64,000 nt of DNA from an uncultured Candidatus Poseidoniales archaeon. GTDB taxonomy: Archaea; Thermoplasmatota; Poseidoniia; Poseidoniales; CAYMED01. The translations under genes and the position numbers were made by a program. Positions 9,193-29,331 of this stretch are shown piece after piece. The number at the start of each line of letters is the position of its first letter. Within the stretch, counting starts at the first letter, position 1. The notes under the pieces were generated by a model that saw only the letters and a program-made list of their open reading frames with translations, made no database searches and was not told where the DNA came from. Where the stretch lies: positions 39,163 to 103,162 of the forward strand of contig CAYMED010000003.1 in NCBI GenBank assembly GCA_964389655.1. The letters run 5' to 3'.

Positions 9193-9753
9193 ATGAAATC
9201 ATGGCCGGCTGACCAATGGTTTATGCCAAATCCAAGTCTTGTTGATAAAATACGAAAGCTTCGCATACTTGTTCTTGACGTGGATGGTGTATTGACAGAT
9301 GGAACTATACTTCGGTTAGCTGATGGAACTGAAGCGAGAAAGTTCTCAGTATACGATGGCCATGGACTTGGCCTTCTAAAATCCGAAGGATGGGTATTGG
9401 CAGCTGTATCTCGAGAACCCTCTATGATTACTAAATCAAGATTAGAGAAATTGAACTTTGATGAAATTCACATTGGCATTGAGGATAAAGGAAGCACGAT
9501 TGTGGAAATGCTAAATCGGTTAGGAATAAAACGAGAACATGCTGCTTTTTTTGGAGATGATCTCCCTGATATTTCAGCATTTGAAAATGTTGGAATACGG
9601 GTCGCACCAAATGGCGCTCATCCAGTAGTGGAAGATGCTGCTGACATAGTAACAATCTCAAGGGGTGGGTATGGGGCCGTTCGAGAAATTTGTGAGATCT
9701 TCAGGGCATGTCATGGAAAAGGGCCCTATGTTGGCGCACTTACCCAGCAATGA
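9193..9753 (+). CDS. KdsC/YrbI-family HAD phosphatase (probable nonulosonate-9-phosphate phosphatase)
   Basis: LDVDGVLTDG, FSVYDGHG, FGDDLPD, GGYGAVRE. Confidence 0.85.
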   Translation: MKSWPADQWFMPNPSLVDKIRKLRILVLDVDGVLTDGTILRLADGTEARKFSVYDGHGLGLLKSEGWVLAAVSREPSMITKSRLEKLNFDEIHIGIEDKGSTIVEMLNRLGIKREHAAFFGDDLPDISAFENVGIRVAPNGAHPVVEDAADIVTISRGGYGAVREICEIFRACHGKGPYVGALTQQ

Positions 9754-10429
9754 AATCATGCGATAAGGCAACTTGTTCCAAAATTTCCCAATCCAATTCG
9801 CTATCGATTTCTAAACTCTGCCAATCTTGCATGGGGTAAAGACCTATGTAGCCCTCTAGGCGACAGGAATGTTTCTTCCAAATTTGCATCTTAGTGACAT
9901 AAAAAGCGCCATTTTCCCTAAATCGACCGCTCATTTCTTGCCGCCTAGGTCTCAAGTGAGGATCATAATTAGGGATGGCAAGATCACCATCGAGGTTCCA
10001 AATAAAATCGTGGGATTCCGTAGCAGTAACCAGACTATCATAACCTCCATTCACAAACTGCTGCATTGCTGAATCTAAATCACTAGACAGAGTCAATGGA
10101 GAAGTAGGCTGGACCAGAAAAACAACATCATATTCAGAAATGCCTTTCACAGAAGTTATTACATCAATAACAACAGATTCACTTGTTGCTTCATCGGTTG
10201 CAAAAATATCTGGGCGCCTATGCGTTTCCGCTCCCGCAAAGTGTGCGAGATCAAGAATCTCTTGAGAGTCGCTTGAAACAATCACACGCTCAATCGCAGA
10301 GGATGCCAGGCATGCAGAGATCGTCCACTCAACCAATGGGCGACCAAGGAATAAGCGTGTGTTTTTTTTCGAAATACCTTTGGATCCACCTCGCGCGGGT
10401 ATGATTGCAACAGAAGATAGCTGAGTCAA
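9740..10429 (-). CDS. neuA: CMP-nonulosonate (acylneuraminate) cytidylyltransferase
   Basis: IIPARGGSKGISKKN, QPTSP, RPRRQE, ENGAFY, EIDSELD. Confidence 0.93.
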   Translation of the reverse strand: MTQLSSVAIIPARGGSKGISKKNTRLFLGRPLVEWTISACLASSAIERVIVSSDSQEILDLAHFAGAETHRRPDIFATDEATSESVVIDVITSVKGISEYDVVFLVQPTSPLTLSSDLDSAMQQFVNGGYDSLVTATESHDFIWNLDGDLAIPNYDPHLRPRRQEMSGRFRENGAFYVTKMQIWKKHSCRLEGYIGLYPMQDWQSLEIDSELDWEILEQVALSHDFIAG

Positions 10430-10438
10430 ATATCTCCC

Positions 10439-11317
10439 TCAACTAGAACGGCGCAATTTATCACGTATTGGTAATTCATCCTCATATACTTGCTTAATTC
10501 CATCACCAATTGCCGATTCTAACGCTCTAATATCGCGAACAAGTCTCTGCAATCCAGGTGGTTCGAGACTTGCAGAATGATCACTTCCTCTTTGTGTTCG
10601 ATCAAGAGTGAAGTGCCGTTCTAACACCTGAGCGCCAAGTGCTACTGCAGCAACATCCATCGAAATACCCCTATGATGTCCACTGAAACCAACAATAAAA
10701 TCATCATACTGTCTTTTCATGACAGGAATATGGGCAAGATTTAGTTGATCAAAACGAGAGGGATAAGTCGAAGTGCAATGTAACATCACTCTAGTACTCG
10801 ATTTGGAAGACCTAATCCATTCAGCACATGTCAAAATTTCATCAGGAGTTGACATACCAGTTGACATGATCAAAGGGAGGCCTGTGTCAACCATTGCGCG
10901 CACAGTTTCTTCATCGGTGACGGAGGCACTAGCAACCTTCCACATGCTGACACCAATCTTGCAGATCTCTTCAACAGATACAGGATCCCACGGCGACACA
11001 AAGTAAGCAATTCCCAGCGATGAGGCATGAGCAAGTAATTCTGCATGTTCAGATGGAGATAATTCTAATGCATCTCGATGTTCACCATAAGTACTTCCAA
11101 ATGCATTCGGCGAGTCATAAGGACGGTCATACTGTTCGGGAGTCAGAAGAGTACGTGTGTGTCGTTTCTGCGATTTTACAGCATTGACGCCTGCACTGGC
11201 TGCAGAAGAAATAAGGCGCTTCGCGTGGTCTAGAGATCCTTGGTGATTTTGGCCAATTTCTGCTATGATATAGGTCTCGCTCAATGCAGCTGCCGCGAGG
11301 AGATCGGTATTCACCAT
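10439..11317 (-). CDS. neuB: N-acylneuraminate/KDN(-9-phosphate) synthase, lacking the C-terminal antifreeze-like domain
   Basis: IIAEIGQNHQG, KSQK, HCTSTYP, GFSGH, ERHFTLD, GSDHSASLEP. Confidence 0.93.
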   Translation of the reverse strand: MVNTDLLAAAALSETYIIAEIGQNHQGSLDHAKRLISSAASAGVNAVKSQKRHTRTLLTPEQYDRPYDSPNAFGSTYGEHRDALELSPSEHAELLAHASSLGIAYFVSPWDPVSVEEICKIGVSMWKVASASVTDEETVRAMVDTGLPLIMSTGMSTPDEILTCAEWIRSSKSSTRVMLHCTSTYPSRFDQLNLAHIPVMKRQYDDFIVGFSGHHRGISMDVAAVALGAQVLERHFTLDRTQRGSDHSASLEPPGLQRLVRDIRALESAIGDGIKQVYEDELPIRDKLRRSS

Positions 11318-11365
11318 GCACCAAGGGTGGGGGAGGAGCCGTTAACTCCTTTCCAACAATGAATA

Positions 11366-12262
11366 TCATTCACGTCCAATCAAACGAGCAATAAATGAGC
11401 GGGCACGGGCAATGAAATCTGGAAAAAACTGCTTGCGAGCATGCCTACGTATTACTCGCAACTGATGAATCGCATGATTTTGAGAAATATTATTCTCCAA
11501 TTCCACCTCACCAACCCCAACAACACACCATAATTCACTTTCGACCTCTTTGATCTCAAGAATTTGTAAGCCAGACCTCCCAAGTAAGACTTCAAGGGTG
11601 GGAGGTGAAAAATAGGAAACATGAGGTGCGCGGAAGAAGTAATTTTTCAGACTCCCATTGGGAGACATCATATTTGGTACCGCTATGTAGGCACAACCCG
11701 ATTTGGTGAGGGAAAGGCGTATTTTCTCTAACGTAGCAAGAGGATCAAGCAGGTGTTCAAGAACATGCCTAAGTATGATAATATCAAATTCCCCTCTGCA
11801 TTTTTCATCCCATTTCCCCTCAACGTCATCACTCAATACCTGAAATCCCCTTACTTCTGAAAGGTGATTCCTACACTCAGATGATGGCTCAATTGCAGAA
11901 CAACTCAGCCCAGAGTACTTTGTTTCAAGTAATCTCAGAACACTCCCTTTACCTGCACCGATACTCAAAGCACGGTTGGGTGCTTCACCAATAAATTTAG
12001 AGACTCGCTCTACAACCAAATCATAACATGGATTAGATAAATCATCTCCTGTTTCAACACGATATTCGGTATCAAATTCTTGCGCATAATAAGCTGAATA
12101 ACCATCTGCGTCCCACCGTGGGCTCAAATAGACAAATCCATCATCAAGGCAAATTACAACATATGCGGGATCTCCAAATTGTCCTTTCCTTGCAAGTCGC
12201 TTGATATGCGTTCCATCACAGATGGCGCAACTTGCATCCACCATGGGCCAAGTATGCTCCAT
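11366..12262 (-). CDS. Class I SAM methyltransferase with N-terminal Zn-ribbon-like segment (glycan-associated type)
   Basis: CAIC...C N-terminus, SIGAGKG, IEPS, HVLEHL, AVPN; co-oriented upstream of neuB. Confidence 0.85.
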   Translation of the reverse strand: MEHTWPMVDASCAICDGTHIKRLARKGQFGDPAYVVICLDDGFVYLSPRWDADGYSAYYAQEFDTEYRVETGDDLSNPCYDLVVERVSKFIGEAPNRALSIGAGKGSVLRLLETKYSGLSCSAIEPSSECRNHLSEVRGFQVLSDDVEGKWDEKCRGEFDIIILRHVLEHLLDPLATLEKIRLSLTKSGCAYIAVPNMMSPNGSLKNYFFRAPHVSYFSPPTLEVLLGRSGLQILEIKEVESELWCVVGVGEVELENNISQNHAIHQLRVIRRHARKQFFPDFIARARSFIARLIGRE

Positions 12263-12572
12263 CAATTGCGGAGTATATCTTAACTTATTGAGTGCTGTGG
12301 CTCTTCTTCAAGCACATACTACGCCATTGGCTGGAGCCATTTGTACGAATCAAAATACGGGCTCTTCGTCTTTCGACTATGATGATAATAAAAATGCTGA
12401 ATTTAGGTGCTGGCGCTTGTTATAAATCACATTAGTAAAATATAGATTTTTTGCCACACCACCCGCACCCCCCCATGGATCCTCAAGAGGAAACTACTGA
12501 AATAAATTCAGTTACGAATCACAATTAGCGATTAACCCGTCATCTTGAATTACAGTTCTCCAAGCCCATTCC

Positions 12573-13196
12573 ATGGGGGACAGAGATGCCATAGAGGTCT
12601 TCTCCGAGTGGGCCCTGAAAGACAGAGACCTTGGCATGGAGAGCGGCCATGCAGACTCCGTGCACGGTATGCTCTCTATCGCGCTACAGAGGCTCGATGG
12701 CCCGTTCTCCGCCATCGATGTGGGGTGCGGTAATGGGTGGGTGTGCAGGAGCCTCGAGCAGACGGACCGCTGTACCGAGGCTGTCGGTGTGGATGGCTCA
12801 GAGGAGATGATAAAGAAGGCCAAGTCTAGGGGGAACGGGGATTTTCACCATGCCTTCCTGCCGGAGTGGAGGCCGACTCGGAGGTTCGACCTCGTCCATT
12901 CAATGGAGTTTCTCTACTACCTCCGTGATCCTATTTCGATGATTTCCGCGATCCACGACGACTGGCTGAAACCCGGCGGGGTGCTGGTGGCAGGTGTAGA
13001 CCACTATCTAGAGAACGAGGACAGTCTAGACTGGTCGGAAGGCCTGAGCGTACACATGACCACCCTCAGTGAGGTGGAGTGGGGGCAAGGCATGCTAGAC
13101 GCGGGCTTCGAGGACGTCGAGATACGCAGGGTCGGTATCAAGGATGGGTTCGTGGGGACTCTCGCCATGATCGGGACCAAGCCTGCATCAACCTGA
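12573..13196 (+). CDS. Class I SAM-dependent methyltransferase (GC-rich gene)
   Basis: IDVGCGNG, GVDGS, FDLVHSMEFLYY, LKPGG. Confidence 0.88.
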   Translation: MGDRDAIEVFSEWALKDRDLGMESGHADSVHGMLSIALQRLDGPFSAIDVGCGNGWVCRSLEQTDRCTEAVGVDGSEEMIKKAKSRGNGDFHHAFLPEWRPTRRFDLVHSMEFLYYLRDPISMISAIHDDWLKPGGVLVAGVDHYLENEDSLDWSEGLSVHMTTLSEVEWGQGMLDAGFEDVEIRRVGIKDGFVGTLAMIGTKPAST

Positions 13197-13300
13197 GTTG
13201 GGGATCAGCACGTGTTTATTCCAGTACCCCATGATGTAGCAGTTCCCTAGCACGGAGTTGAAAATCAGGGTCACCAATGCGACGATGCAGTCCATTAGAT

Positions 13301-14503
13301 CTACGGAAAGGGGTCCTTCCAATTTGGTGCTTGGCCACCTAAGGCAAGATGTTTAACGAGACTTGCAACTCTTGCTCCATTCTTTCCATCGGAACGATAT
13401 CCAAAACGAGTGAATGCAGCATTACTGGCTTTTTCATCAGCCACTAAAGTACCAAGCACTGCATCATTCAGTTTGTCGGGACCAAACACGGCCTTGCCCA
13501 ATGAATCATCAAGGATTTGTAGTTCAGATTCTTCTGCCGCACCAGAACCCAGTGGAATAAGATTAACGAAGGGGATGCGGCATGCTAAAGCTGCTGCAAC
13601 GACTGAAGTCGCAGGAGATATAATCACAGATGAATGTCGGACAAGGGAGAGAAAGGAGGAAGATTCTTCAATCACAAAAACATCATTTGGAAATTTCATA
13701 GATGATTTCTGCGCAATTTCAACAGGATGGGGTTTGAACACGATTTGGACATTTTTAACTGATTTCGAGAATTCAATGACTTTCTGGAAGGCCTTGTCTG
13801 CGATCTCTTTGATTGGAGAGCGATGTGTGCCAAGTAACAGGATAATTCGAATTTCAGGGTCCAGCCCGTATGTTTTAAGGGGTTCAAAGTCAACTGGGTC
13901 AGACAATCCATCGATTGAAGGAGAACCCGTAATAATTTGCAACTCAGGGGGGGCTCCTGCACGCACATTTACATCGCGATTTACTTCTGACCAAACCGCA
14001 CATGCATCACAACCCATCATGCTTCCACGGTAACTCAGCCAAGGCCAATTGATGGTTGGCATACCATGATCAATTGCAAGAACTGGAATGCCCAGTTTAC
14101 GGGCCCATGGGATCAAGTGATAGCGAGTGTGACCTTCATGTGGAGATGTCACAAGAACAAGATTTGGTATCCAAGGCAAATGCCCTTTCAAGGGCCGACA
14201 ACGGATGGGCCATGATGGTAATGATGATGACAAAACAGTCTCCCTATCACCTGCATTGCGAAGACGCCATTTCCACTCGGTACGGGTAAAAAGATTGCGT
14301 GCAAGGCCGAAGCGGTCCCAAGAAATATCCCTCACAAGGTGCGCAAATCGATTTGTTGGTCGGAAAATAGCATCACTTGGTTCATTCATCGCTGAAATAT
14401 GAAGCCAAGAAATATCCGTTTCTAGAGCCGAGAGTACTGACTCCACATGGATAGACATTGCTGGACGCTCGCCAGTGAATGCCAATACTCGCAGCGAACT
14501 CAC
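13301..14503 (-). CDS. GT-B fold protein: divergent UDP-GlcNAc 2-epimerase-like or nonulosonate/glycerophosphate transferase-like
   Basis: FTGERP, AIDHG, TGSPSID, VFKPHP, FLSLVRHSSVII...ALACRIP; GTG start. Confidence 0.6.
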   Translation of the reverse strand: MSSLRVLAFTGERPAMSIHVESVLSALETDISWLHISAMNEPSDAIFRPTNRFAHLVRDISWDRFGLARNLFTRTEWKWRLRNAGDRETVLSSSLPSWPIRCRPLKGHLPWIPNLVLVTSPHEGHTRYHLIPWARKLGIPVLAIDHGMPTINWPWLSYRGSMMGCDACAVWSEVNRDVNVRAGAPPELQIITGSPSIDGLSDPVDFEPLKTYGLDPEIRIILLLGTHRSPIKEIADKAFQKVIEFSKSVKNVQIVFKPHPVEIAQKSSMKFPNDVFVIEESSSFLSLVRHSSVIISPATSVVAAALACRIPFVNLIPLGSGAAEESELQILDDSLGKAVFGPDKLNDAVLGTLVADEKASNAAFTRFGYRSDGKNGARVASLVKHLALGGQAPNWKDPFP

Positions 14504-14598
14504 CTACCTGAGCCTAACCGCCGCTCTGAAAAAGGGAGCGGTCATGTGAAGGGACATCATAAGCGATCTGCAAGAGTAGAGTGGATTCTGGAAGTGTG

Positions 14599-15480
14599 AT
14601 GGAAATGCGCCGCAAGACGATCAAGTTGAGAGAGAAATTGCAACGAGATGGGTTCGTCGTTATTCGGGAATTATTGGACAAGAATACAACTGATAAGTTA
14701 CGAAAACAAATATCTGAAGTATCTGAAATTCATGATGCCGATTTTGTTGGGATAGAAAAGGGAACAAAGAGGCTTTGGACAATGCCAAATGGAGTAGCAA
14801 AGAGAAAAGAGTTTCAGCACATAATATGGAATCCCCACATTACAAATGCTGTGAAAGAGGTTTTGGGTGAAAATATATCCTACCTTCATCACAATGACCT
14901 CCATGCGGGATATGGGTCACCTGGCTGGCATCGTGATAGTGTGAACCGAGTATTTCCTGAAGGAAGTGATTTTGATGAAACAGGGCACCCATATAGGGTC
15001 GTTCGCGTGGCAATTTATCTCCAATCCCATGCTGAATCGGGATTCAAGATGGGATTTATTCCCAAAAGTCATCGGCGTGAGAAAAGAATCACGAAATGGG
15101 AACGGAAAGCCCCTCGTGTCTCAACTGTGCGGCGATGGTTGATTGGGCAAAAACTCCTGACAGCCAAATCTAAGTGGGTTGCCACAAACCCGGGTGACGT
15201 AGTAATTTTTGATTGCCGTACGCTTCATTGTGGGGGCCACATTCGCGGTCCAAAGTATGCAGTATACATGGGATATGGAATCCAAAATCACCACTTCGAC
15301 CAACATTGGAATTATTACGAACATATCCGAAAAGACCTCGGTTATGGAGAAGTTGAACCATCTTTACAGAAAAAGTTGGAGGAAATGAATTTGTGGCCGA
15401 AGAAGCAAATAAAAAAAGTAGATGAAATAGGTCATGCATATATTCCGAAGCTCGACATTCTAGACAAAGAGACGATGTAA
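14599..15480 (+). CDS. PhyH-family Fe(II)/2-oxoglutarate dioxygenase
   Basis: DGFVVIRELL, WHRD (HxD), PGDVVIFDCRTLHCG distal His. Confidence 0.85.
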   Translation: MEMRRKTIKLREKLQRDGFVVIRELLDKNTTDKLRKQISEVSEIHDADFVGIEKGTKRLWTMPNGVAKRKEFQHIIWNPHITNAVKEVLGENISYLHHNDLHAGYGSPGWHRDSVNRVFPEGSDFDETGHPYRVVRVAIYLQSHAESGFKMGFIPKSHRREKRITKWERKAPRVSTVRRWLIGQKLLTAKSKWVATNPGDVVIFDCRTLHCGGHIRGPKYAVYMGYGIQNHHFDQHWNYYEHIRKDLGYGEVEPSLQKKLEEMNLWPKKQIKKVDEIGHAYIPKLDILDKETM

Positions 15481-23886: not shown

Positions 23887-24861
23887 CTATTGAAGATTCC
23901 CGCAGGGCGTTTTGTCATGCATCAGCAAATTTCGTTGTCTTCGGTTGTACTGTGCCGTGAAAAGCAAGACTAAAATTGTACAAATTGAGGCGTCATATCG
24001 GCCAAGAGATTCTGTTGATGGTGATGATGTATTTTTTCCAATGGAAAGTTCATCAATCTCTTCCGCATCCCTAATAGCAACAACATCAACTGTAATTTCA
24101 ACATTATCTGCGACTCCTGAATCACCCGCATCAGCATCGGCACTAGACCATGCGCGCATTGCAAGACGACATAAAGTGGAGGGATGGGCACTAGAAGGCG
24201 TCAGGAATACATTAACGGTCACTACGGAACTGGGATTGATGATGAGATCCACTGCATCTTGCTCCCCAGAGATCTCGAGTTGAGGGCAAGACGTATCGCT
24301 TTCAATTCGGTCCACTGAGTCCTTTCCATTTCCTTTATTTTCGATTTTGAGTGCAATTTCAGCCGATGTTCCAGCAGTAATGGGCCCACCTGGTTCAGAC
24401 AAGTGCAATTCCAATTGAGTAACTCGAGGAATCTCCGCAAGCGCTTCAAGTGTCAGAGAATCTTCGCCATAGCCACCAGACACGCCATTTGTACTCACCC
24501 TAGTAATTTCAATTTTGAATGAGTCCGTGGTCCCAGCATCATGATCACGGACAGTTATGTCTTCGAATATAGCATCGAAGGTCTTGTTTTCCCCACTTTC
24601 AAGCGTGAATTCCCTTTCCGCACCATCACCGATTTTTGCCGAAAATGGTACGTCAAATTCAACACTAAACTGAACAGACCCCGGGCCCCTATTATCCACC
24701 CAATATTCTACTTGAAGAGATCCATCGCTACCAACCATAAATGCATTCGATTGTTCGACAAAATCAGTATCCCAAGACCCTACTCCTTGTGCAGATACCG
24801 TTAAAAAAATACCACTAAGCATCAAAAGAGTGCAAAAGTAGATTCGGCTTCGCACGCTCAT
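23887..24861 (-). CDS. Secreted Ig-like beta-sandwich protein with C-terminal membrane anchor
   Basis: Signal peptide; repeated V.N.G / IENKGNGKD motifs; hydrophobic C-terminus plus RRQR; 4-bp overlap with the upstream FAD subunit gene. Confidence 0.65.
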   Translation of the reverse strand: MSVRSRIYFCTLLMLSGIFLTVSAQGVGSWDTDFVEQSNAFMVGSDGSLQVEYWVDNRGPGSVQFSVEFDVPFSAKIGDGAEREFTLESGENKTFDAIFEDITVRDHDAGTTDSFKIEITRVSTNGVSGGYGEDSLTLEALAEIPRVTQLELHLSEPGGPITAGTSAEIALKIENKGNGKDSVDRIESDTSCPQLEISGEQDAVDLIINPSSVVTVNVFLTPSSAHPSTLCRLAMRAWSSADADAGDSGVADNVEITVDVVAIRDAEEIDELSIGKNTSSPSTESLGRYDASICTILVLLFTAQYNRRQRNLLMHDKTPCGNLQ

Positions 24862-25844
24862 AGCCCCCGCAACGCGGACAAGGCACGTTTAGTAAGAACA
24901 CGCAACATCTTTCTACGATAACGCGGTGGAAATGCGGTATTATTAACTGGCTTGATTGATTTTTTCACCGCCTCAGCCAAGGAATCAATCGATGAAGAAG
25001 AATCCCATGAGGATAAAAATGAAGCGACCTCCTCTGCATGTAATTTTGGAATGGATTCACAACCAGTGGTAGCTATACGAAGCTCCAGTGGAATCCCTTG
25101 CTCGTCAAGACGCCACGCTGCTGCAACCCCTGCTTCTGGAAAATCCCAAGATTCCCTAAGTCGCAATTTCTGATAGTCACCCTCTAGAGAAATTGCGCGT
25201 TCGTCAAGTGTGACGTGGGTAATCATTTCACCTGGTTGCAATATATTTCGGGAAATTCCATCTAGTTGAAAAAAATCCTCAAGAGGCATGCTTCGCATAT
25301 CATCTACTGAAGCAAGATGAATCACAGCACCAAGACACATCAGTACCGGCGCCAAATCTGCCTGATATGTCGCAACACATAGGGTATTTTGGTTCGGAAT
25401 TACTCGACAATCTGCTCCAGTATCATAATCACATTTGTGACACCATTCAATGCTTCTACGCCAATCTTCTGTTTGATTAAACCAAAAACACCTCGTGTCA
25501 AGACAGAGATTTCCCCCCACCGTTGCTGATTGTCGAATAAGAACACTGGCAATTGATTCTGAGGCCTTGCTGATTAGTGGGTGAGTTAATGGAGATTCAG
25601 CCAAATCATGCAATCGCACCATGGCACCGATATGGGTTGCTGTGTGCTTAGTTAACTCCTCAACTTTTGCCAAAGAGATTACGTGTCCTTTTGAATTAAG
25701 ATGCCATTTGTAATTAGGTAACAAATCCGTTCCACCGGCTATCCAATCAAACTCAGTATTTGCAGACACAAACTGCGAAGACAGATCTAGAGCCTCCGCC
25801 AAACTCTCAGGTAGGTGAAGAATGAATGGCGGGGTGCGCATCAA
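24858..25844 (-). CDS. Mo-hydroxylase FAD subunit with [4Fe-4S] insert (4-hydroxybenzoyl-CoA reductase beta-like)
   Basis: IAGGTDLL, IGAMV, ATVGGNLC, Cys insert DTRCFWFNQ..WCHKC..DC..LCVATYQADLAP, KLRLRESWDFP. Confidence 0.88.
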   Translation of the reverse strand: MMRTPPFILHLPESLAEALDLSSQFVSANTEFDWIAGGTDLLPNYKWHLNSKGHVISLAKVEELTKHTATHIGAMVRLHDLAESPLTHPLISKASESIASVLIRQSATVGGNLCLDTRCFWFNQTEDWRRSIEWCHKCDYDTGADCRVIPNQNTLCVATYQADLAPVLMCLGAVIHLASVDDMRSMPLEDFFQLDGISRNILQPGEMITHVTLDERAISLEGDYQKLRLRESWDFPEAGVAAAWRLDEQGIPLELRIATTGCESIPKLHAEEVASFLSSWDSSSSIDSLAEAVKKSIKPVNNTAFPPRYRRKMLRVLTKRALSALRGL

Positions 25845-28618
25845 ACACCACCCCTATGTCTCCGCTCAAGGTGTTTCCAAGCACCACCTGCTAAGCGAGG
25901 AGAGGACAAATAATCCGAAGGCGGCGTTACTGAAACAACCCAGTCGTCTGATTGCTCATCCGGTGGCATTTTTGGATCATAGCCAAAAATTGCACCATTA
26001 TGATATGGCTCTCGGTCTTCTGTATGTCGGCGGGCTAAATCACGTTCTGCATGTTCTTCGGCTCGAGACTCTAACATCACTTGTAATGGGGAAAAATCAA
26101 GCCTTGGTGGAGGAAGTTCAAACTCATTATCGATATTCAGATCATTGCATTTAGATTCGATAGCACTGTGCAAACGGTCAGGAGTCACGGGGAGTTCAAA
26201 TGGACGGACACCGGTGGCATCATAGATTGCATTGCATACTGCTGGGAGCACGGGTAAAAGTGGGCCCTCTCCCGCTTCCTTAGCGCCGAATGGCCCTTCA
26301 GGATCATTGCTTTCAACAATAATGGGAACAACTTCTGGCATTTCATGAATGGTTGGAATCTTGTACTCTAACAAATTTGGATTTAGCAAGTGACCAGTTC
26401 GGCCATATCTCATCTCTTCAGTGATTACTTGCCCGAGGCCCATATGGCAACTCCCGATTATCTGGCCCTCTACGGATAATGGATTGAGGGCTTTTCCACA
26501 GTCATGAGCGGCCCAAACTTTGATCACTTTTGTGTGCCCAGTTTCTACGTCCACCTTCACTTCGGCAACATATGCTGAGAATGAATAAGCCGGGGCAAGG
26601 CCTGCTGCAGCGCCTTTATGTGCGCGCCCCATAGGAGGCGTTCTATAGGACCCTGAGGCGACAAGCGCCCCACGATCTTCCTGAGCTTTGTGCAAGGCCT
26701 CAAGATAAGATACACCTAGTCCCGGGTCAGACTTGACATAGATTCTACGGTCCCCTATGATGAGATCTTCTATTCTCGAATTAGTAATTTCTGCAGCGGA
26801 AGTTAGTAAGTCCTTGCGAACCTCCATGGCAGCAGAAATCGCTGCATTTGCGTTCATAAACGTAACTCGGCTCGAATACGATCCGAGATCGACAGGAGAC
26901 GTATCTGATTCTTGTGATCGCACGCGAATCATATCAAGAGGAAGGCCAAGGACTTCAGCAACTGCTTGGCTGACAACAGTATCAGACCCCTGCCCAATAT
27001 CGGCGGCGCCCGTGTGAACCGTTACGCCTCCATCCATGTCGACTTTCAAATGGACAGTTGCATGCGGGAATTTATTTGGGTCCCAATGGATTGGTAAGCC
27101 ACTTCCTGAGATAAAGAAACCACAACCCACACCAATTCCATGCCCAAGTGGTAATTTTCGAAACTTATTTTTCCAATCTGATGCTTCAGCAACTCGTTCT
27201 AAACATTCCCGCATCCCAATACTAGTCACTCTAAATCCAGTGATTGTTGTGCTATGTGGAGGGAGAATATTAGAAAGGCGAAATGTAATTGGATCAACGC
27301 CCAATTGTTCAGATAAATCATCAATTGCAACTTCAAATGCGCATCTTGAATTTACTGCCCCGTGCCCACGCATCGCTCCACTTGCTGGCTTATTTGTCCA
27401 CACTCTTGCTCCAGTATAATGAAAAGATCCAATCTCATAAGGTGCCGAGTGTAGAACACCATTGTAGTAAGTAGTTACATGCCCAAATGAAGCAAACGCT
27501 CCGCCATCAATCAAGGCATCTGTTGCAACACCGCTAATTCTGCCTTGATCATCTGAATAAAGATTCATTTCGATTAAAGATGGATGCCTTCCCCGGTTTA
27601 CCCAAAAAACCTCTTCCCGATCAAAATTTATCCTAACTGGCTTCCCGGATTTTCGAGCAAGAATGGCAGCACACATCTCATGAGGGAACGGGTCAGATTT
27701 CCCACCAAACCCGCCACCGACAAACGTTCTATATACATTAATCTGGTGCATCGGAATCTCTAGAACATCTGCGAGAGCCCTGTGAACATAATGGGGAACT
27801 TGTTGAGGGGTATAGAGGGTCAAGCGACCAGATGGTTTCCAATGTGCAACAACAGCATGAGGCTCAGTAAATCCATGATTCACACCTGAAAATTTCCAAT
27901 TAGATGAGTGACTAGCTGCAGCAGATTCTGCGACGCCCCCGACATTTCCAAATTCTTGGAACACTCGCTTTTGGATATTTGATTCACCAATGTGATATAT
28001 GCCACGGTCATGGATTGGCTCATCGCAGTCATCAAGGCCGGAGCGCATATCATGAGTGGCATCAAGAACATCATATTCAACTTCAATCAATTGGATTGCA
28101 TGTCTAGCAGTCATCTCATCATCTGCTGCCACACATGCCACAGGGTCACCCACATGGCGTACTTTCTCAACGGCCATCGCATGCTCGTCTTTCGTGACTG
28201 GTAATACACCAAATTTACAGGTTGCATCTAGACCGGTTGCAACTGAGATGACACCAGGAAGGGCTTCTGCTTTTGTTGTATCAATAGAGGATATTCGGGC
28301 ATAGTGGTGAGGGCTCCGAAGAATCCTCCCAATCAATTCACCCGGTAAACGGATATCATCACCATATCTTGCTTGTCCAGTAACTTTCCAACGACTATCC
28401 TTTAGAGGAGTACGTTTCCCAATTGCGGCACCAGTTACGTATGGGTCATGGGCATGTGGCCCCCATGGTTGCTTTTTTTTACCGCCCTGACTTTCAGGAA
28501 TCATTGAGAGGTCTCGCAGTGAACTAAATGATCCCTTGCCTCCACTACCTGGTCGAGAAAATGGAAGTTTCCCCGGTTGCTGGCGATAACCGACCATTTC
28601 CTCAGGTTTTTCAGACAT
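25841..28618 (-). CDS. Xanthine-dehydrogenase-family molybdopterin subunit (4-hydroxybenzoyl-CoA reductase alpha-like)
   Basis: KVTGQARY, QVPHYVH, GGGFGGK, GAMRGHG, GAADIGQGS, GSYSSRVTFM, GPFGAKEAGEG; start ATG 28618 overlaps the end of the upstream gene. Confidence 0.9.
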   Translation of the reverse strand: MSEKPEEMVGYRQQPGKLPFSRPGSGGKGSFSSLRDLSMIPESQGGKKKQPWGPHAHDPYVTGAAIGKRTPLKDSRWKVTGQARYGDDIRLPGELIGRILRSPHHYARISSIDTTKAEALPGVISVATGLDATCKFGVLPVTKDEHAMAVEKVRHVGDPVACVAADDEMTARHAIQLIEVEYDVLDATHDMRSGLDDCDEPIHDRGIYHIGESNIQKRVFQEFGNVGGVAESAAASHSSNWKFSGVNHGFTEPHAVVAHWKPSGRLTLYTPQQVPHYVHRALADVLEIPMHQINVYRTFVGGGFGGKSDPFPHEMCAAILARKSGKPVRINFDREEVFWVNRGRHPSLIEMNLYSDDQGRISGVATDALIDGGAFASFGHVTTYYNGVLHSAPYEIGSFHYTGARVWTNKPASGAMRGHGAVNSRCAFEVAIDDLSEQLGVDPITFRLSNILPPHSTTITGFRVTSIGMRECLERVAEASDWKNKFRKLPLGHGIGVGCGFFISGSGLPIHWDPNKFPHATVHLKVDMDGGVTVHTGAADIGQGSDTVVSQAVAEVLGLPLDMIRVRSQESDTSPVDLGSYSSRVTFMNANAAISAAMEVRKDLLTSAAEITNSRIEDLIIGDRRIYVKSDPGLGVSYLEALHKAQEDRGALVASGSYRTPPMGRAHKGAAAGLAPAYSFSAYVAEVKVDVETGHTKVIKVWAAHDCGKALNPLSVEGQIIGSCHMGLGQVITEEMRYGRTGHLLNPNLLEYKIPTIHEMPEVVPIIVESNDPEGPFGAKEAGEGPLLPVLPAVCNAIYDATGVRPFELPVTPDRLHSAIESKCNDLNIDNEFELPPPRLDFSPLQVMLESRAEEHAERDLARRHTEDREPYHNGAIFGYDPKMPPDEQSDDWVVSVTPPSDYLSSPRLAGGAWKHLERRHRGGV

Positions 28619-29216
28619 TAGATCCCTCACTATCGGGGCCGCTAAATTCTGACACCTGATGCACATTATCGGCCAAAACAAAACCTGGATGCGGGTTGCT
28701 CTTCGGTTCTGTTGGATCGGGGGTATCTTCTTTCTTCGAGAAGAGAAGAGAAGCGGCGTGCACTGAATCTACAATTTGTTGATAACCGGTGCAACGGCAC
28801 AAATTTCCTTCAATCGCCTTTTTTATTTGTACATCACTAGGCGAGGGGTGAGACTCCAATAATGCTGAAATGACAACTAAGAACCCTGGTGTACAAAAGC
28901 CACATTGGCTTCCACCATAAGTTGCAAATGTTTCCTGAATTGGGTGCAAGTGTTGGCCATCGGCCAGGCCCTCAACTGTAACGATGGAGCACCCATCCAC
29001 TTCTTGTGCTAATAAAAGACACGAAAGTTTAGGCACTCCATTAATCAAGACCGCACAGCATCCACATGTCCCAAGATCACAGCCTCTCTTGACACCAAGC
29101 ATACCGACCTGTTCACGAAGTACGTCAAGAAGAATTGCATTCTGATCGATCAATTCTTCCACTAATTGTCCATTCACCTCTCCTTTCCATCGGCATGGAG
29201 GAAGAGAAGATTTCAT
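28611..29216 (-). CDS. 2x[2Fe-2S] small subunit (CoxS/HcrC family)
   Basis: GCDLGTCGCC..SC, QCGFCTPG, GNLCRCTGY. Confidence 0.93.
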   Translation of the reverse strand: MKSSLPPCRWKGEVNGQLVEELIDQNAILLDVLREQVGMLGVKRGCDLGTCGCCAVLINGVPKLSCLLLAQEVDGCSIVTVEGLADGQHLHPIQETFATYGGSQCGFCTPGFLVVISALLESHPSPSDVQIKKAIEGNLCRCTGYQQIVDSVHAASLLFSKKEDTPDPTEPKSNPHPGFVLADNVHQVSEFSGPDSEGSNV

Positions 29217-29331
29217 ATTGACCGTGGGCCCGGGACTCATGCGAAACAATTCTTCGGAACCATCAATGCACTTCAGTATTCGGACAGCAAATTAGCGTTA
29301 GAGCCTTGAGCAAGTAAATACTCAGCAACCC

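Follow-up and report, generated by a model that had tools for sequence, protein, structure and literature searches.

A putative Kdn-type sialic acid module in the genome of an uncultured Marine Group II archaeon

Introduction

The pathway for 2-keto-3-deoxy-nonulosonic acid (Kdn) in Bacteroides thetaiotaomicron comprises the Kdn-9-phosphate synthase BT1714, the phosphatase BT1713 and the cytidine monophosphate (CMP)-Kdn synthetase BT1715 (Wang et al. 2008, to the extent that it is cited in PMC6200933), and both this pathway and that of the alga Prymnesium parvum start from mannose-6-phosphate (Man-6-P) (PMC6200933). In PpNeuA, the Kdn-specific enzyme of P. parvum, Arg196 acts as the gate-keeper for Kdn, and the R196L mutant flips the preference of the enzyme to N-acetylneuraminic acid (Neu5Ac); the gate-keeper site is occupied by Arg in Kdn-only bacteria and by Ile in PseF (PMC12934254). 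For archaea, a survey published in 2021 reported that no Neu5Ac synthase had been characterised, and the same survey described a group of NeuB synthases from environmental bacteria that have no SAF (antifreeze-like) domain (group I) and whose substrate was uncharacterised (PMC8208679). Here we analyse a seven-gene sugar locus found in a 64,000-nucleotide stretch of DNA, referred to below as the window, from an uncultured Candidatus Poseidoniales archaeon (assembly GCA_964389655.1, contig CAYMED010000003.1). Judging from its genes and their relatives, we consider it probable that the locus is an accessory surface-glycan module for the synthesis and use of CMP-Kdn, or of Kdn in a tailored form, by a phosphorylated route.

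Poseidoniales belong to the Marine Group II (MGII) archaea, which are uncultured and rank with the most abundant microbes in surface seawater. To our knowledge, next to nothing is known about the chemistry of their cell surface. Our literature search returned no paper that connects sialic or nonulosonic acids with Marine Group II or Poseidoniales. The gene identities, the linkage of the genes, their fusions in other organisms, the synthase phylogeny and the specificity residue described below are observations, and the functions that we propose are built on them.

The Core Module and the Phosphorylated Route

Three genes form the core of the locus. The first one, on the minus strand at positions 10439-11317, encodes a NeuB-family synthase (PF03102, E 3e-72), which is the putative Kdn-9-phosphate synthase acting on phosphoenolpyruvate (PEP) together with Man-6-P. 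The second, also on the minus strand (9740-10429), encodes NeuA, a CTP_transf_3 cytidylyltransferase (PF02348, E 2e-22) and the putative CMP-Kdn synthetase. The third, on the plus strand (9193-9753), encodes a C0 HAD phosphatase of the YrbI/KdsC family (TIGR01670, 115 bits with a cut-off of 107), which is predicted to be the Kdn-9-phosphate phosphatase. These and the other gene identities come from an open reading frame map and from Pfam and NCBIfam scans of the window proteins, and they agree with an earlier model-made reading of the bare letters (the sequence-only reading): all seven genes were found where it had placed them, as was the 14-bp overlap between the convergent 3' ends of the phosphatase gene and neuA, at 9740-9753. 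In the B. thetaiotaomicron pathway, too, a NeuB-family synthase is clustered with a YrbI-family C0 HAD phosphatase and a CMP-synthetase, and the window differs from it in its archaeal host, in its transferase and tailoring genes, in the clade of the synthase and in the score of the phosphatase.

The three genes stay together over a wide phylogenetic range. Among the nine MGII loci that we compared, from metagenomes and species genomes, the phosphatase, NeuB and NeuA occur jointly in every one whose contig is complete, and in all of these the phosphatase orthologue adjoins NeuB. Outside this group, a scan of species-representative genomes yielded 80 loci from many phyla, 59 of which have a KdsC-like HAD protein near NeuB, mostly adjacent to it or fused to its neighbour, and 61 of which have NeuA close to NeuB. 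Fusions are common: among the best 120 homologues of the window NeuB, 26 are HAD-NeuB fusions of about 465 aa, with the HAD part N-terminal and 38-47% identical to the window phosphatase, and nine are NeuA-NeuB fusions of about 509 aa. NeuA-HAD fusions of about 390 aa are found in Bacteroidota, in Nitrosomonas, on pSymB of Sinorhizobium meliloti and in Amycolatopsis, and in Nonomuraea gerenzanensis matches to NeuA, the HAD phosphatase and NeuB lie within one reading frame of 730 aa (L041:6633-8822), an apparent triple fusion. A phosphatase that sits beside the synthase or is fused to it makes sense only if the product of the synthase is phosphorylated. The phosphorylated route proposed in the sequence-only reading is thus borne out by the conserved adjacency, by the fusions among synthase, phosphatase and cytidylyltransferase, and by the phylogeny described below.

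The phosphatase carries the DVDG and GDD motifs. Its best relatives in the PDB are KdsC structures (E 3e-31), and BT1713 (3e81) is matched at E 1e-20. In several Neomarinimicrobiota loci (L054-L067) and in an ANME archaeon of the Methanophagaceae (L059), a NeuB of about 347 aa, which leaves room for a SAF domain, is directly followed by a KdsC-like phosphatase of 165 aa; the phosphatases of L054 and L059, the two tested, score 166-169 bits on the Kdn-9-phosphate phosphatase model. The phosphorylated route seems to be common in marine bacteria and to occur in other archaea as well.

The Synthase and Its Phylogeny

The window NeuB, the only NeuB of its genome according to a profile search, is 292 aa long; its sequence stops where the TIM barrel does and lacks a SAF domain. 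In this it resembles the group I enzymes of environmental bacteria, and its best solved relative is the short NeuB of Leptospira (6NCS, E 4e-39). It stays below the curated equivalog cut-offs of both NeuB_NnaB (TIGR03569; 243 bits against 400) and PseI (194 bits against 340). When compared with the Neisseria meningitidis enzyme (1xuu, native numbering), the equivalents of E25, E234 and H236 are kept, and H214 is invariant.

We built two maximum-likelihood trees of NeuB sequences, with 116 and 93 rows, in which three PseI sequences from complete annotated pse clusters served as references and which hold no LegI and no classical NeuB reference. In both trees the window NeuB falls into an MGII clade with 100% support, this clade is nested in a clade of short NeuBs supported at 99-100%, almost all of whose members are phosphatase-linked, and the PseI references form a distant outgroup to it. 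The check by NeuB phylogeny called for in the sequence-only reading thus places the synthase away from PseI, in trees that contain no LegI sequence.

As a proxy for BT1714, we used NeuBs encoded beside genes that reach the equivalog level of the Kdn-9-phosphate phosphatase (KDN9PP) model in Bacteroidales. This model is a narrow one: B. thetaiotaomicron alone passes it among 14 control genomes, and of 251 Bacteroidales genomes 18 do so. We retrieved 12 of the best-scoring Bacteroidales loci, and in 11 of these the gene directly upstream of the KDN9PP gene encodes a NeuB of about 346 aa. The BT1714-like clade and the short-NeuB clade fall together into one group with 95% support. The window synthase, as far as the trees allow us to say, belongs to the same kind of pathway as BT1714 and lies outside the clade of that characterised enzyme.

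Specificity and Precursor Supply

Evidence on which sugar is made comes from NeuA, the sole CTP_transf_3 protein encoded in the genome. Its best solved relative is PpNeuA (9t4z, E 9e-45); the murine CMAS is matched at E 7e-33. After the chain index of 9t4z was related to residue numbers (an offset of 18, set by Thr89, Gln110, Lys165 and Tyr183), R190 of the window NeuA aligns with the gate-keeper Arg196 of PpNeuA without gaps, and the equivalent of Tyr183 and a conserved Gln are common to both enzymes. P. parvum differs in being a eukaryotic alga in which the enzyme is membrane-anchored and for which no dedicated phosphatase was found. The gate-keeper column holds Arg in 64 of 67 NeuAs from the phosphatase-linked clusters, and Ile and Leu in our two PseF references.

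The genome (2.1 Mb, 93% complete, 5.7% contamination) was also searched with profiles for genes that could supply N-acetylated precursors. It yielded no Epimerase_2 protein (NeuC/WecB/GNE) at E 0.01 or better and no NanE, so no route to N-acetylmannosamine (ManNAc) or to ManNAc-6-phosphate was found. An archaeal protein of the SIS type, similar to phosphoglucose/phosphomannose isomerases (PGI/PMI), is a candidate supplier of Man-6-P.

These data bear on the possibility that the module takes ManNAc-6-phosphate along the same phosphorylated route and yields CMP-Neu5Ac, as in animals. The synthase does score higher on NeuB_NnaB than on PseI, human NANS accepts both Man-6-P and ManNAc-6-phosphate (according to the table quoted in PMC6200933), and the GT-B protein of the locus has an epimerase-like fold. 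Against this stand the missing Epimerase_2 and NanE, the lack of a conserved kinase linked to the module and an Arg in NeuA that, in PpNeuA, sterically bars the 5-N-acetyl group, while the GT-B family shows neither the motifs of a true Epimerase_2 nor profile similarity to it, as detailed below. We therefore regard synthesis of CMP-Neu5Ac as very unlikely. The sequence-only reading had left the product as either CMP-Kdn or CMP-Neu; R190 and the absence of epimerase genes uphold its first half and speak against the Neu5Ac half.

A second alternative is that the substrate is an unphosphorylated 6-deoxy-diamino hexose, of the type used for pseudaminic (Pse) or legionaminic (Leg) acid, made by genes elsewhere in the genome, and that the HAD phosphatase has nothing to do with it. 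A PseB-like gene (251 bits) and a PseC-like gene (292 bits) do exist at the end of contig C12 (8644-10907 of locus L023), where they adjoin a GT4 gene, and the only NeuB that the genome could offer them is that of the window. Both, however, score below the equivalog level, and neither PseG nor PseH was seen beside them before the contig ends. Furthermore, the trees put the synthase at a great distance from PseI, the NeuA site that is Ile or Leu in PseF is occupied by Arg, and the products of 6-deoxy precursors cannot carry a 9-phosphate, which disfavours a 6-deoxy route and would leave the conserved and often fused phosphatase unexplained. This alternative appears to us extremely improbable, and the C12 pair probably makes a 4-amino-4,6-dideoxy-N-acetylhexosamine for another glycan. 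The dehydratase and aminotransferase genes of Pse and Leg pathways had been declared absent in the sequence-only reading, and this is true of the window and of its contig, the whole of which was searched for a DegT aminotransferase and a PseB/LegB-type (Polysacc_synt_2) dehydratase, and not of the genome, given the PseB/PseC-like pair on C12.

Several observations weigh against a Kdn pathway, and the C12 pair is one of them. The phosphatase scores higher on the KdsC model than on the model for Kdn-9-phosphate phosphatases and passes neither equivalog cut-off (125 bits against 208 for KdsC, 97 bits against 180 for the KDN9PP-BT model NF058599). The BT1714-like proxies form a separate, long-branch clade with 100% support, and the window NeuB is not in it. 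The PGI/PMI-like protein is below the cut-off of its family. The Arg rule is not absolute, since the trout CMAS has Leu at the gate-keeper site and yet prefers Kdn (PMC12934254). Finally, the catalytic Glu134 of N. meningitidis NeuB, a residue near the expected place of a 6-phosphate (PMC8208679), is replaced by Ser132 in the window synthase, so that the chemistry may differ in detail. In our alignment, this column holds Glu in the PseI references, Asp and occasionally Glu in the long forms with a SAF domain, and one of Ser, Gly, Cys and Ala in all members of the short-NeuB clade; the Leptospira enzyme 6NCS has Asp at this position, in contrast to the window clade, which has no acidic residue there. 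Going by the alignment, the substitution is a notable deviation that proves nothing in either direction.

The gate-keeper Arg, the similarity to PpNeuA and the lack of genes for ManNAc supply lead us to take the product for CMP-Kdn or for a closely related 5-hydroxy derivative, and the most likely pathway predicted from these genes leads from Man-6-P through Kdn-9-phosphate and Kdn to CMP-Kdn.

The TagF-Like GT-B Protein

The putative CMP-nonulosonate transferase of the locus is a TagF-like GT-B protein of 400 aa encoded on the minus strand at 13301-14503 and identified by its predicted fold and by the motifs DHG, TGSPxxD and KPHP. The GT-B fold was predicted from an alignment-based model with a predicted local distance difference test (pLDDT) score of 88; the single-sequence model had a pLDDT of 35. 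The protein is present in eight of the 151 Poseidoniales species genomes sampled, six of which also have the short NeuB. In the remaining two, of genus g2, it occurs with a CTP_transf_3 + PseG-like fusion and a SAF-type NeuB, the latter being encoded by the immediate neighbour of the GT-B gene. In one of these genomes, G002, the island has the same flanking genes as a Kdn-type island on another contig of MGII, which suggests that nonulosonate cassettes can be swapped around a conserved transferase. Since the GT-B protein is kept while the sugar cassette is exchanged, it is best read as a user of CMP-sugars, and we consider this gene context to be the strongest argument for a transferase. The G002 island (contig C8, L153:8256-13223) contains the fusion protein, of 555 aa, the SAF-type NeuB, the TagF-like GT-B protein and, in addition, a BNR_2 sialidase-like protein.

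It is possible to read the same protein as a divergent NeuC-like hydrolase/2-epimerase of uridine diphosphate (UDP)-sugars, or as a TagF-type phospho-alditol transferase unrelated to Kdn. The Pfam scan gave no match for the window's own protein, the top Foldseek matches of the model are 2-epimerases of UDP-N-acetylglucosamine (UDP-GlcNAc), with NeuC among those listed, and the VIA-align Z scores of the epimerases lie within 1.5 of those of TarL and TagF, so the fold comparison ends in a tie; the missing Pfam match and this tie tell against the transferase, and the orthologues do show Epimerase_2 matches, albeit below the threshold. The orthologues pass the TagF model PF04464, however, and fail Epimerase_2, and the motifs that are invariant in the family (DHG, TGSPxxD and KPHP..E) are TagF-like. 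A true Epimerase_2 protein from a sister species of the same genus carries HVEAG, PEE and DSGG..EE, none of which is found in the GT-B family, and hhalign gives a probability of 0.3% for the comparison of the two. The gene also persists next to the Pse-type cassette, which has its own PseG-like hydrolase domain and needs no 2-epimerase, nor is an epimerase needed in the phosphorylated Kdn route. As for a phospho-alditol transferase, the TagF/TarL teichoic acid polymerases use cytidine diphosphate (CDP)-alditols and PF04464 also covers TagF-like capsule polymerases, whereas the MGII family is linked to CMP-nonulosonate genes, with no CDP-glycerol or CDP-ribitol genes near the MGII GT-B gene. 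We find either of these identities unlikely. The identification as a UDP-GlcNAc 2-epimerase, which the Foldseek ranking had suggested, was set aside on the basis of motifs, profile comparison and gene context.

The transferase thus remains the preferred identity of the GT-B protein, and its donor would be a CMP-nonulosonate. The family is tiny: of 1.8 billion representative clusters, seven match at E below 1e-30. Two distant homologues, P0130 and P0139, sit in polysaccharide clusters whose context does not reveal the donor.

Tailoring Genes

Three further genes of the locus encode enzymes that may modify the sugar. PhyH, encoded on the plus strand at 14581-15480, is an Fe(II)/2-oxoglutarate (Fe/2OG) dioxygenase (PF05721, 48.8 bits with a cut-off of 22) and a candidate hydroxylase of Kdn or CMP-Kdn. 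Its iron triad H117, D119 and H216 (H-x-D...H) is invariant or nearly so among 17 family members. MT1 (11366-12265, minus strand; Methyltransf_23) is a class I S-adenosylmethionine (SAM) methyltransferase with an N-terminal CxxC region and a candidate sugar O-methyltransferase, and MT2 (12573-13196, plus strand), matched by several Methyltransf models, is another class I SAM methyltransferase. A search of PDB sequences with PhyH and MT1 returned weak matches alone. A precedent for the tailoring of a 3-deoxy-ulosonic acid is provided by KdoO, an Fe/2OG dioxygenase that hydroxylates the octulosonic acid Kdo to Ko in lipid A cores, although KdoO belongs to a different protein family from PhyH and acts on a different, lipid-linked sugar substrate.

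Among the sampled Poseidoniales genomes, PhyH is found in four, all of which have the short NeuB, and it is divergent from the GT-B gene wherever a contig shows both. The PhyH family is small, with 34 matches at E 1e-5 or better. Its bacterial homologues, about 40% identical, occur in polysaccharide loci, and a CTP_transf_3 gene is present in five of seven such contexts. In one of them (L155) the gene order is Methyltransf_23 (MT1-like), PhyH, NeuA-HAD, short NeuB, flippase, Wzy, and the short NeuB is 42% identical to that of the window; in another (L159) it is PhyH, NeuA-HAD, NeuB. PhyH abuts neuA in both and lies directly upstream of the CTP_transf_3 gene in a third (L160). A more distant PhyH homologue (35% identity) was seen in a sugar cluster (L157:61-7765) with CTP_transf_3, methyltransferases and an HpcH/HpaI-type aldolase and no NeuB; this cluster may make a CMP-activated keto-deoxy sugar in another way.

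MT1, neuB and neuA follow one another on the same strand in this order, separated by 48 and 9 bp, and an orthologue (35% identity) heads the operon MT1-HAD-NeuB-NeuA in a sister species of the same genus. Full-length MT1 homologues that include the CxxC region are encoded in NeuB/HAD clusters of an Omnitrophota metagenome-assembled genome (MAG; E 2e-18), of an ANME archaeon (E 6e-17) and of L155 (E 9e-9).

It could be argued that the methyltransferases and the dioxygenase are chance neighbours of the core genes or act on other residues of the glycan. This holds best for MT2, a G+C islet (55-59% against 42-47% in the neighbouring genes) on the strand opposite to the MT1-neuB-neuA run and with no orthologue in any related locus compared; MT2 is probably a recent foreign insert, to judge from its composition and its lack of orthologues, rather than a conserved component. 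For the other two, it is a point against their belonging to the module that about half of the MGII loci lack PhyH, that MT1 is confined within the order to the window's own genus and missing from all loci outside it, and that two of the seven bacterial PhyH contexts have no CTP_transf_3 gene. Nevertheless, within the order both are restricted to genomes that bear the module, MT1 is on the same strand directly upstream of neuB-neuA, and L155 and L159 repeat the gene order with PhyH next to neuA. The remaining five PhyH contexts do hold a CTP_transf_3 gene. That the two are neighbours by chance, or act on other glycan residues, strikes us as unlikely. As both recur in bacterial Kdn-type clusters, PhyH and MT1 are likely tailoring enzymes, the dioxygenase presumably hydroxylating or oxidizing its substrate and the methyltransferase acting by O-methylation. 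The co-occurrence of tailoring genes with neuAB in relatives, which the sequence-only reading had made a test of its proposal, is therefore seen for PhyH, MT1 and the GT-B gene and not for MT2.

Distribution, Origin and Novelty

The short NeuB was found in seven of the 151 sampled Poseidoniales species genomes, which belong to three families. By genus, it is present in both genomes of the window's own genus, in four of five genomes of another and in one of seven of a third, and four other Poseidoniales genomes carry an unrelated long NeuB. The nearest homologues of the synthase bear names such as Candidatus Poseidoniaceae, Poseidoniales or Thermoplasmatota archaeon, in keeping with an MGII host. 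In both trees bacterial sequences surround the MGII clade, and this pattern fits a gain of the module from bacteria and a later exchange among members of the order. The label animal-type that the sequence-only reading gave to the route is apt for the logic of the pathway and not for its ancestry. A contig labelled as Salinimicrobium sp. MAG (CAXRAI010000043.1) is syntenic with the MGII loci, and its label is probably a binning or labelling error.

The core pathway is already known from bacteria and algae. What is new here is the archaeal setting, the TagF-like candidate transferase and the recurrent pair of PhyH and methyltransferase. The idea of an undescribed archaeal sugar-decoration system survives in these three respects, and the system is less singular than supposed, the core module being widespread in bacteria.

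Genomic Setting

The locus is flanked upstream by riboflavin genes and a gene for an FG-GAP/ASPIC protein and downstream by purP and the gene for tryptophan 2,3-dioxygenase. With housekeeping genes on both flanks, the sugar locus is a compact island. Further along, at 24858-29249, the window encodes a molybdenum hydroxylase of the xanthine dehydrogenase/CO dehydrogenase type, which has three subunits (FAD-binding, large molybdenum cofactor (MoCo) and 2Fe-2S) and no relation to the glycan locus.

Concluding Remarks

In the module that we propose, the SAF-less NeuB would condense PEP with Man-6-P to Kdn-9-phosphate, the KdsC-type C0 HAD phosphatase would strip off the 9-phosphate, and NeuA would combine Kdn with cytidine triphosphate (CTP) to give CMP-Kdn, the Arg in its C5 pocket favouring a 5-hydroxy sugar and shutting out N-acetyl sugars. 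The TagF-like GT-B enzyme with its HP motif would then use CMP-Kdn as the donor and attach the sugar to a glycoconjugate of the cell surface, and the sugar may be hydroxylated or oxidized by the PhyH dioxygenase and O-methylated by the Methyltransf_23 enzyme. What the enzymes act on, in which order the tailoring steps take place and which acceptor receives the sugar are inferred from gene content and homology. Each of the four alternatives weighed above is less likely than a Kdn module.

A more far-reaching proposal, which we put forward tentatively and would not bet on, is that the set of MT1-like protein, PhyH, NeuA, HAD phosphatase and short NeuB, shared by MGII and several bacteria, makes an undescribed hydroxylated and O-methylated Kdn, and that the TagF-like protein of MGII founds a new family of CMP-nonulosonate transferases serving interchangeable Kdn- and Pse-type cassettes in a hypervariable surface-glycan island, the variability of which is perhaps driven by viruses.

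The gate-keeper Arg, found in 64 of the 67 NeuAs, may provide a simple marker that separates Kdn clusters from those for Neu5Ac, Pse and Leg. The TagF-like protein is a candidate for a new class of nonulosonate transferases, and the recurring pair of PhyH and methyltransferase by neuA suggests that Kdn is modified in an unexplored way, in bacteria as well as in archaea. In haptophyte algae, Kdn has been implicated in mediating infection by viruses (PMC12934254), and a patchy island in which Kdn and Pse cassettes replace each other would fit an arms race between MGII archaea and their viruses. The module leads to the prediction that some lineages of MGII should display Kdn-type sialic acids.

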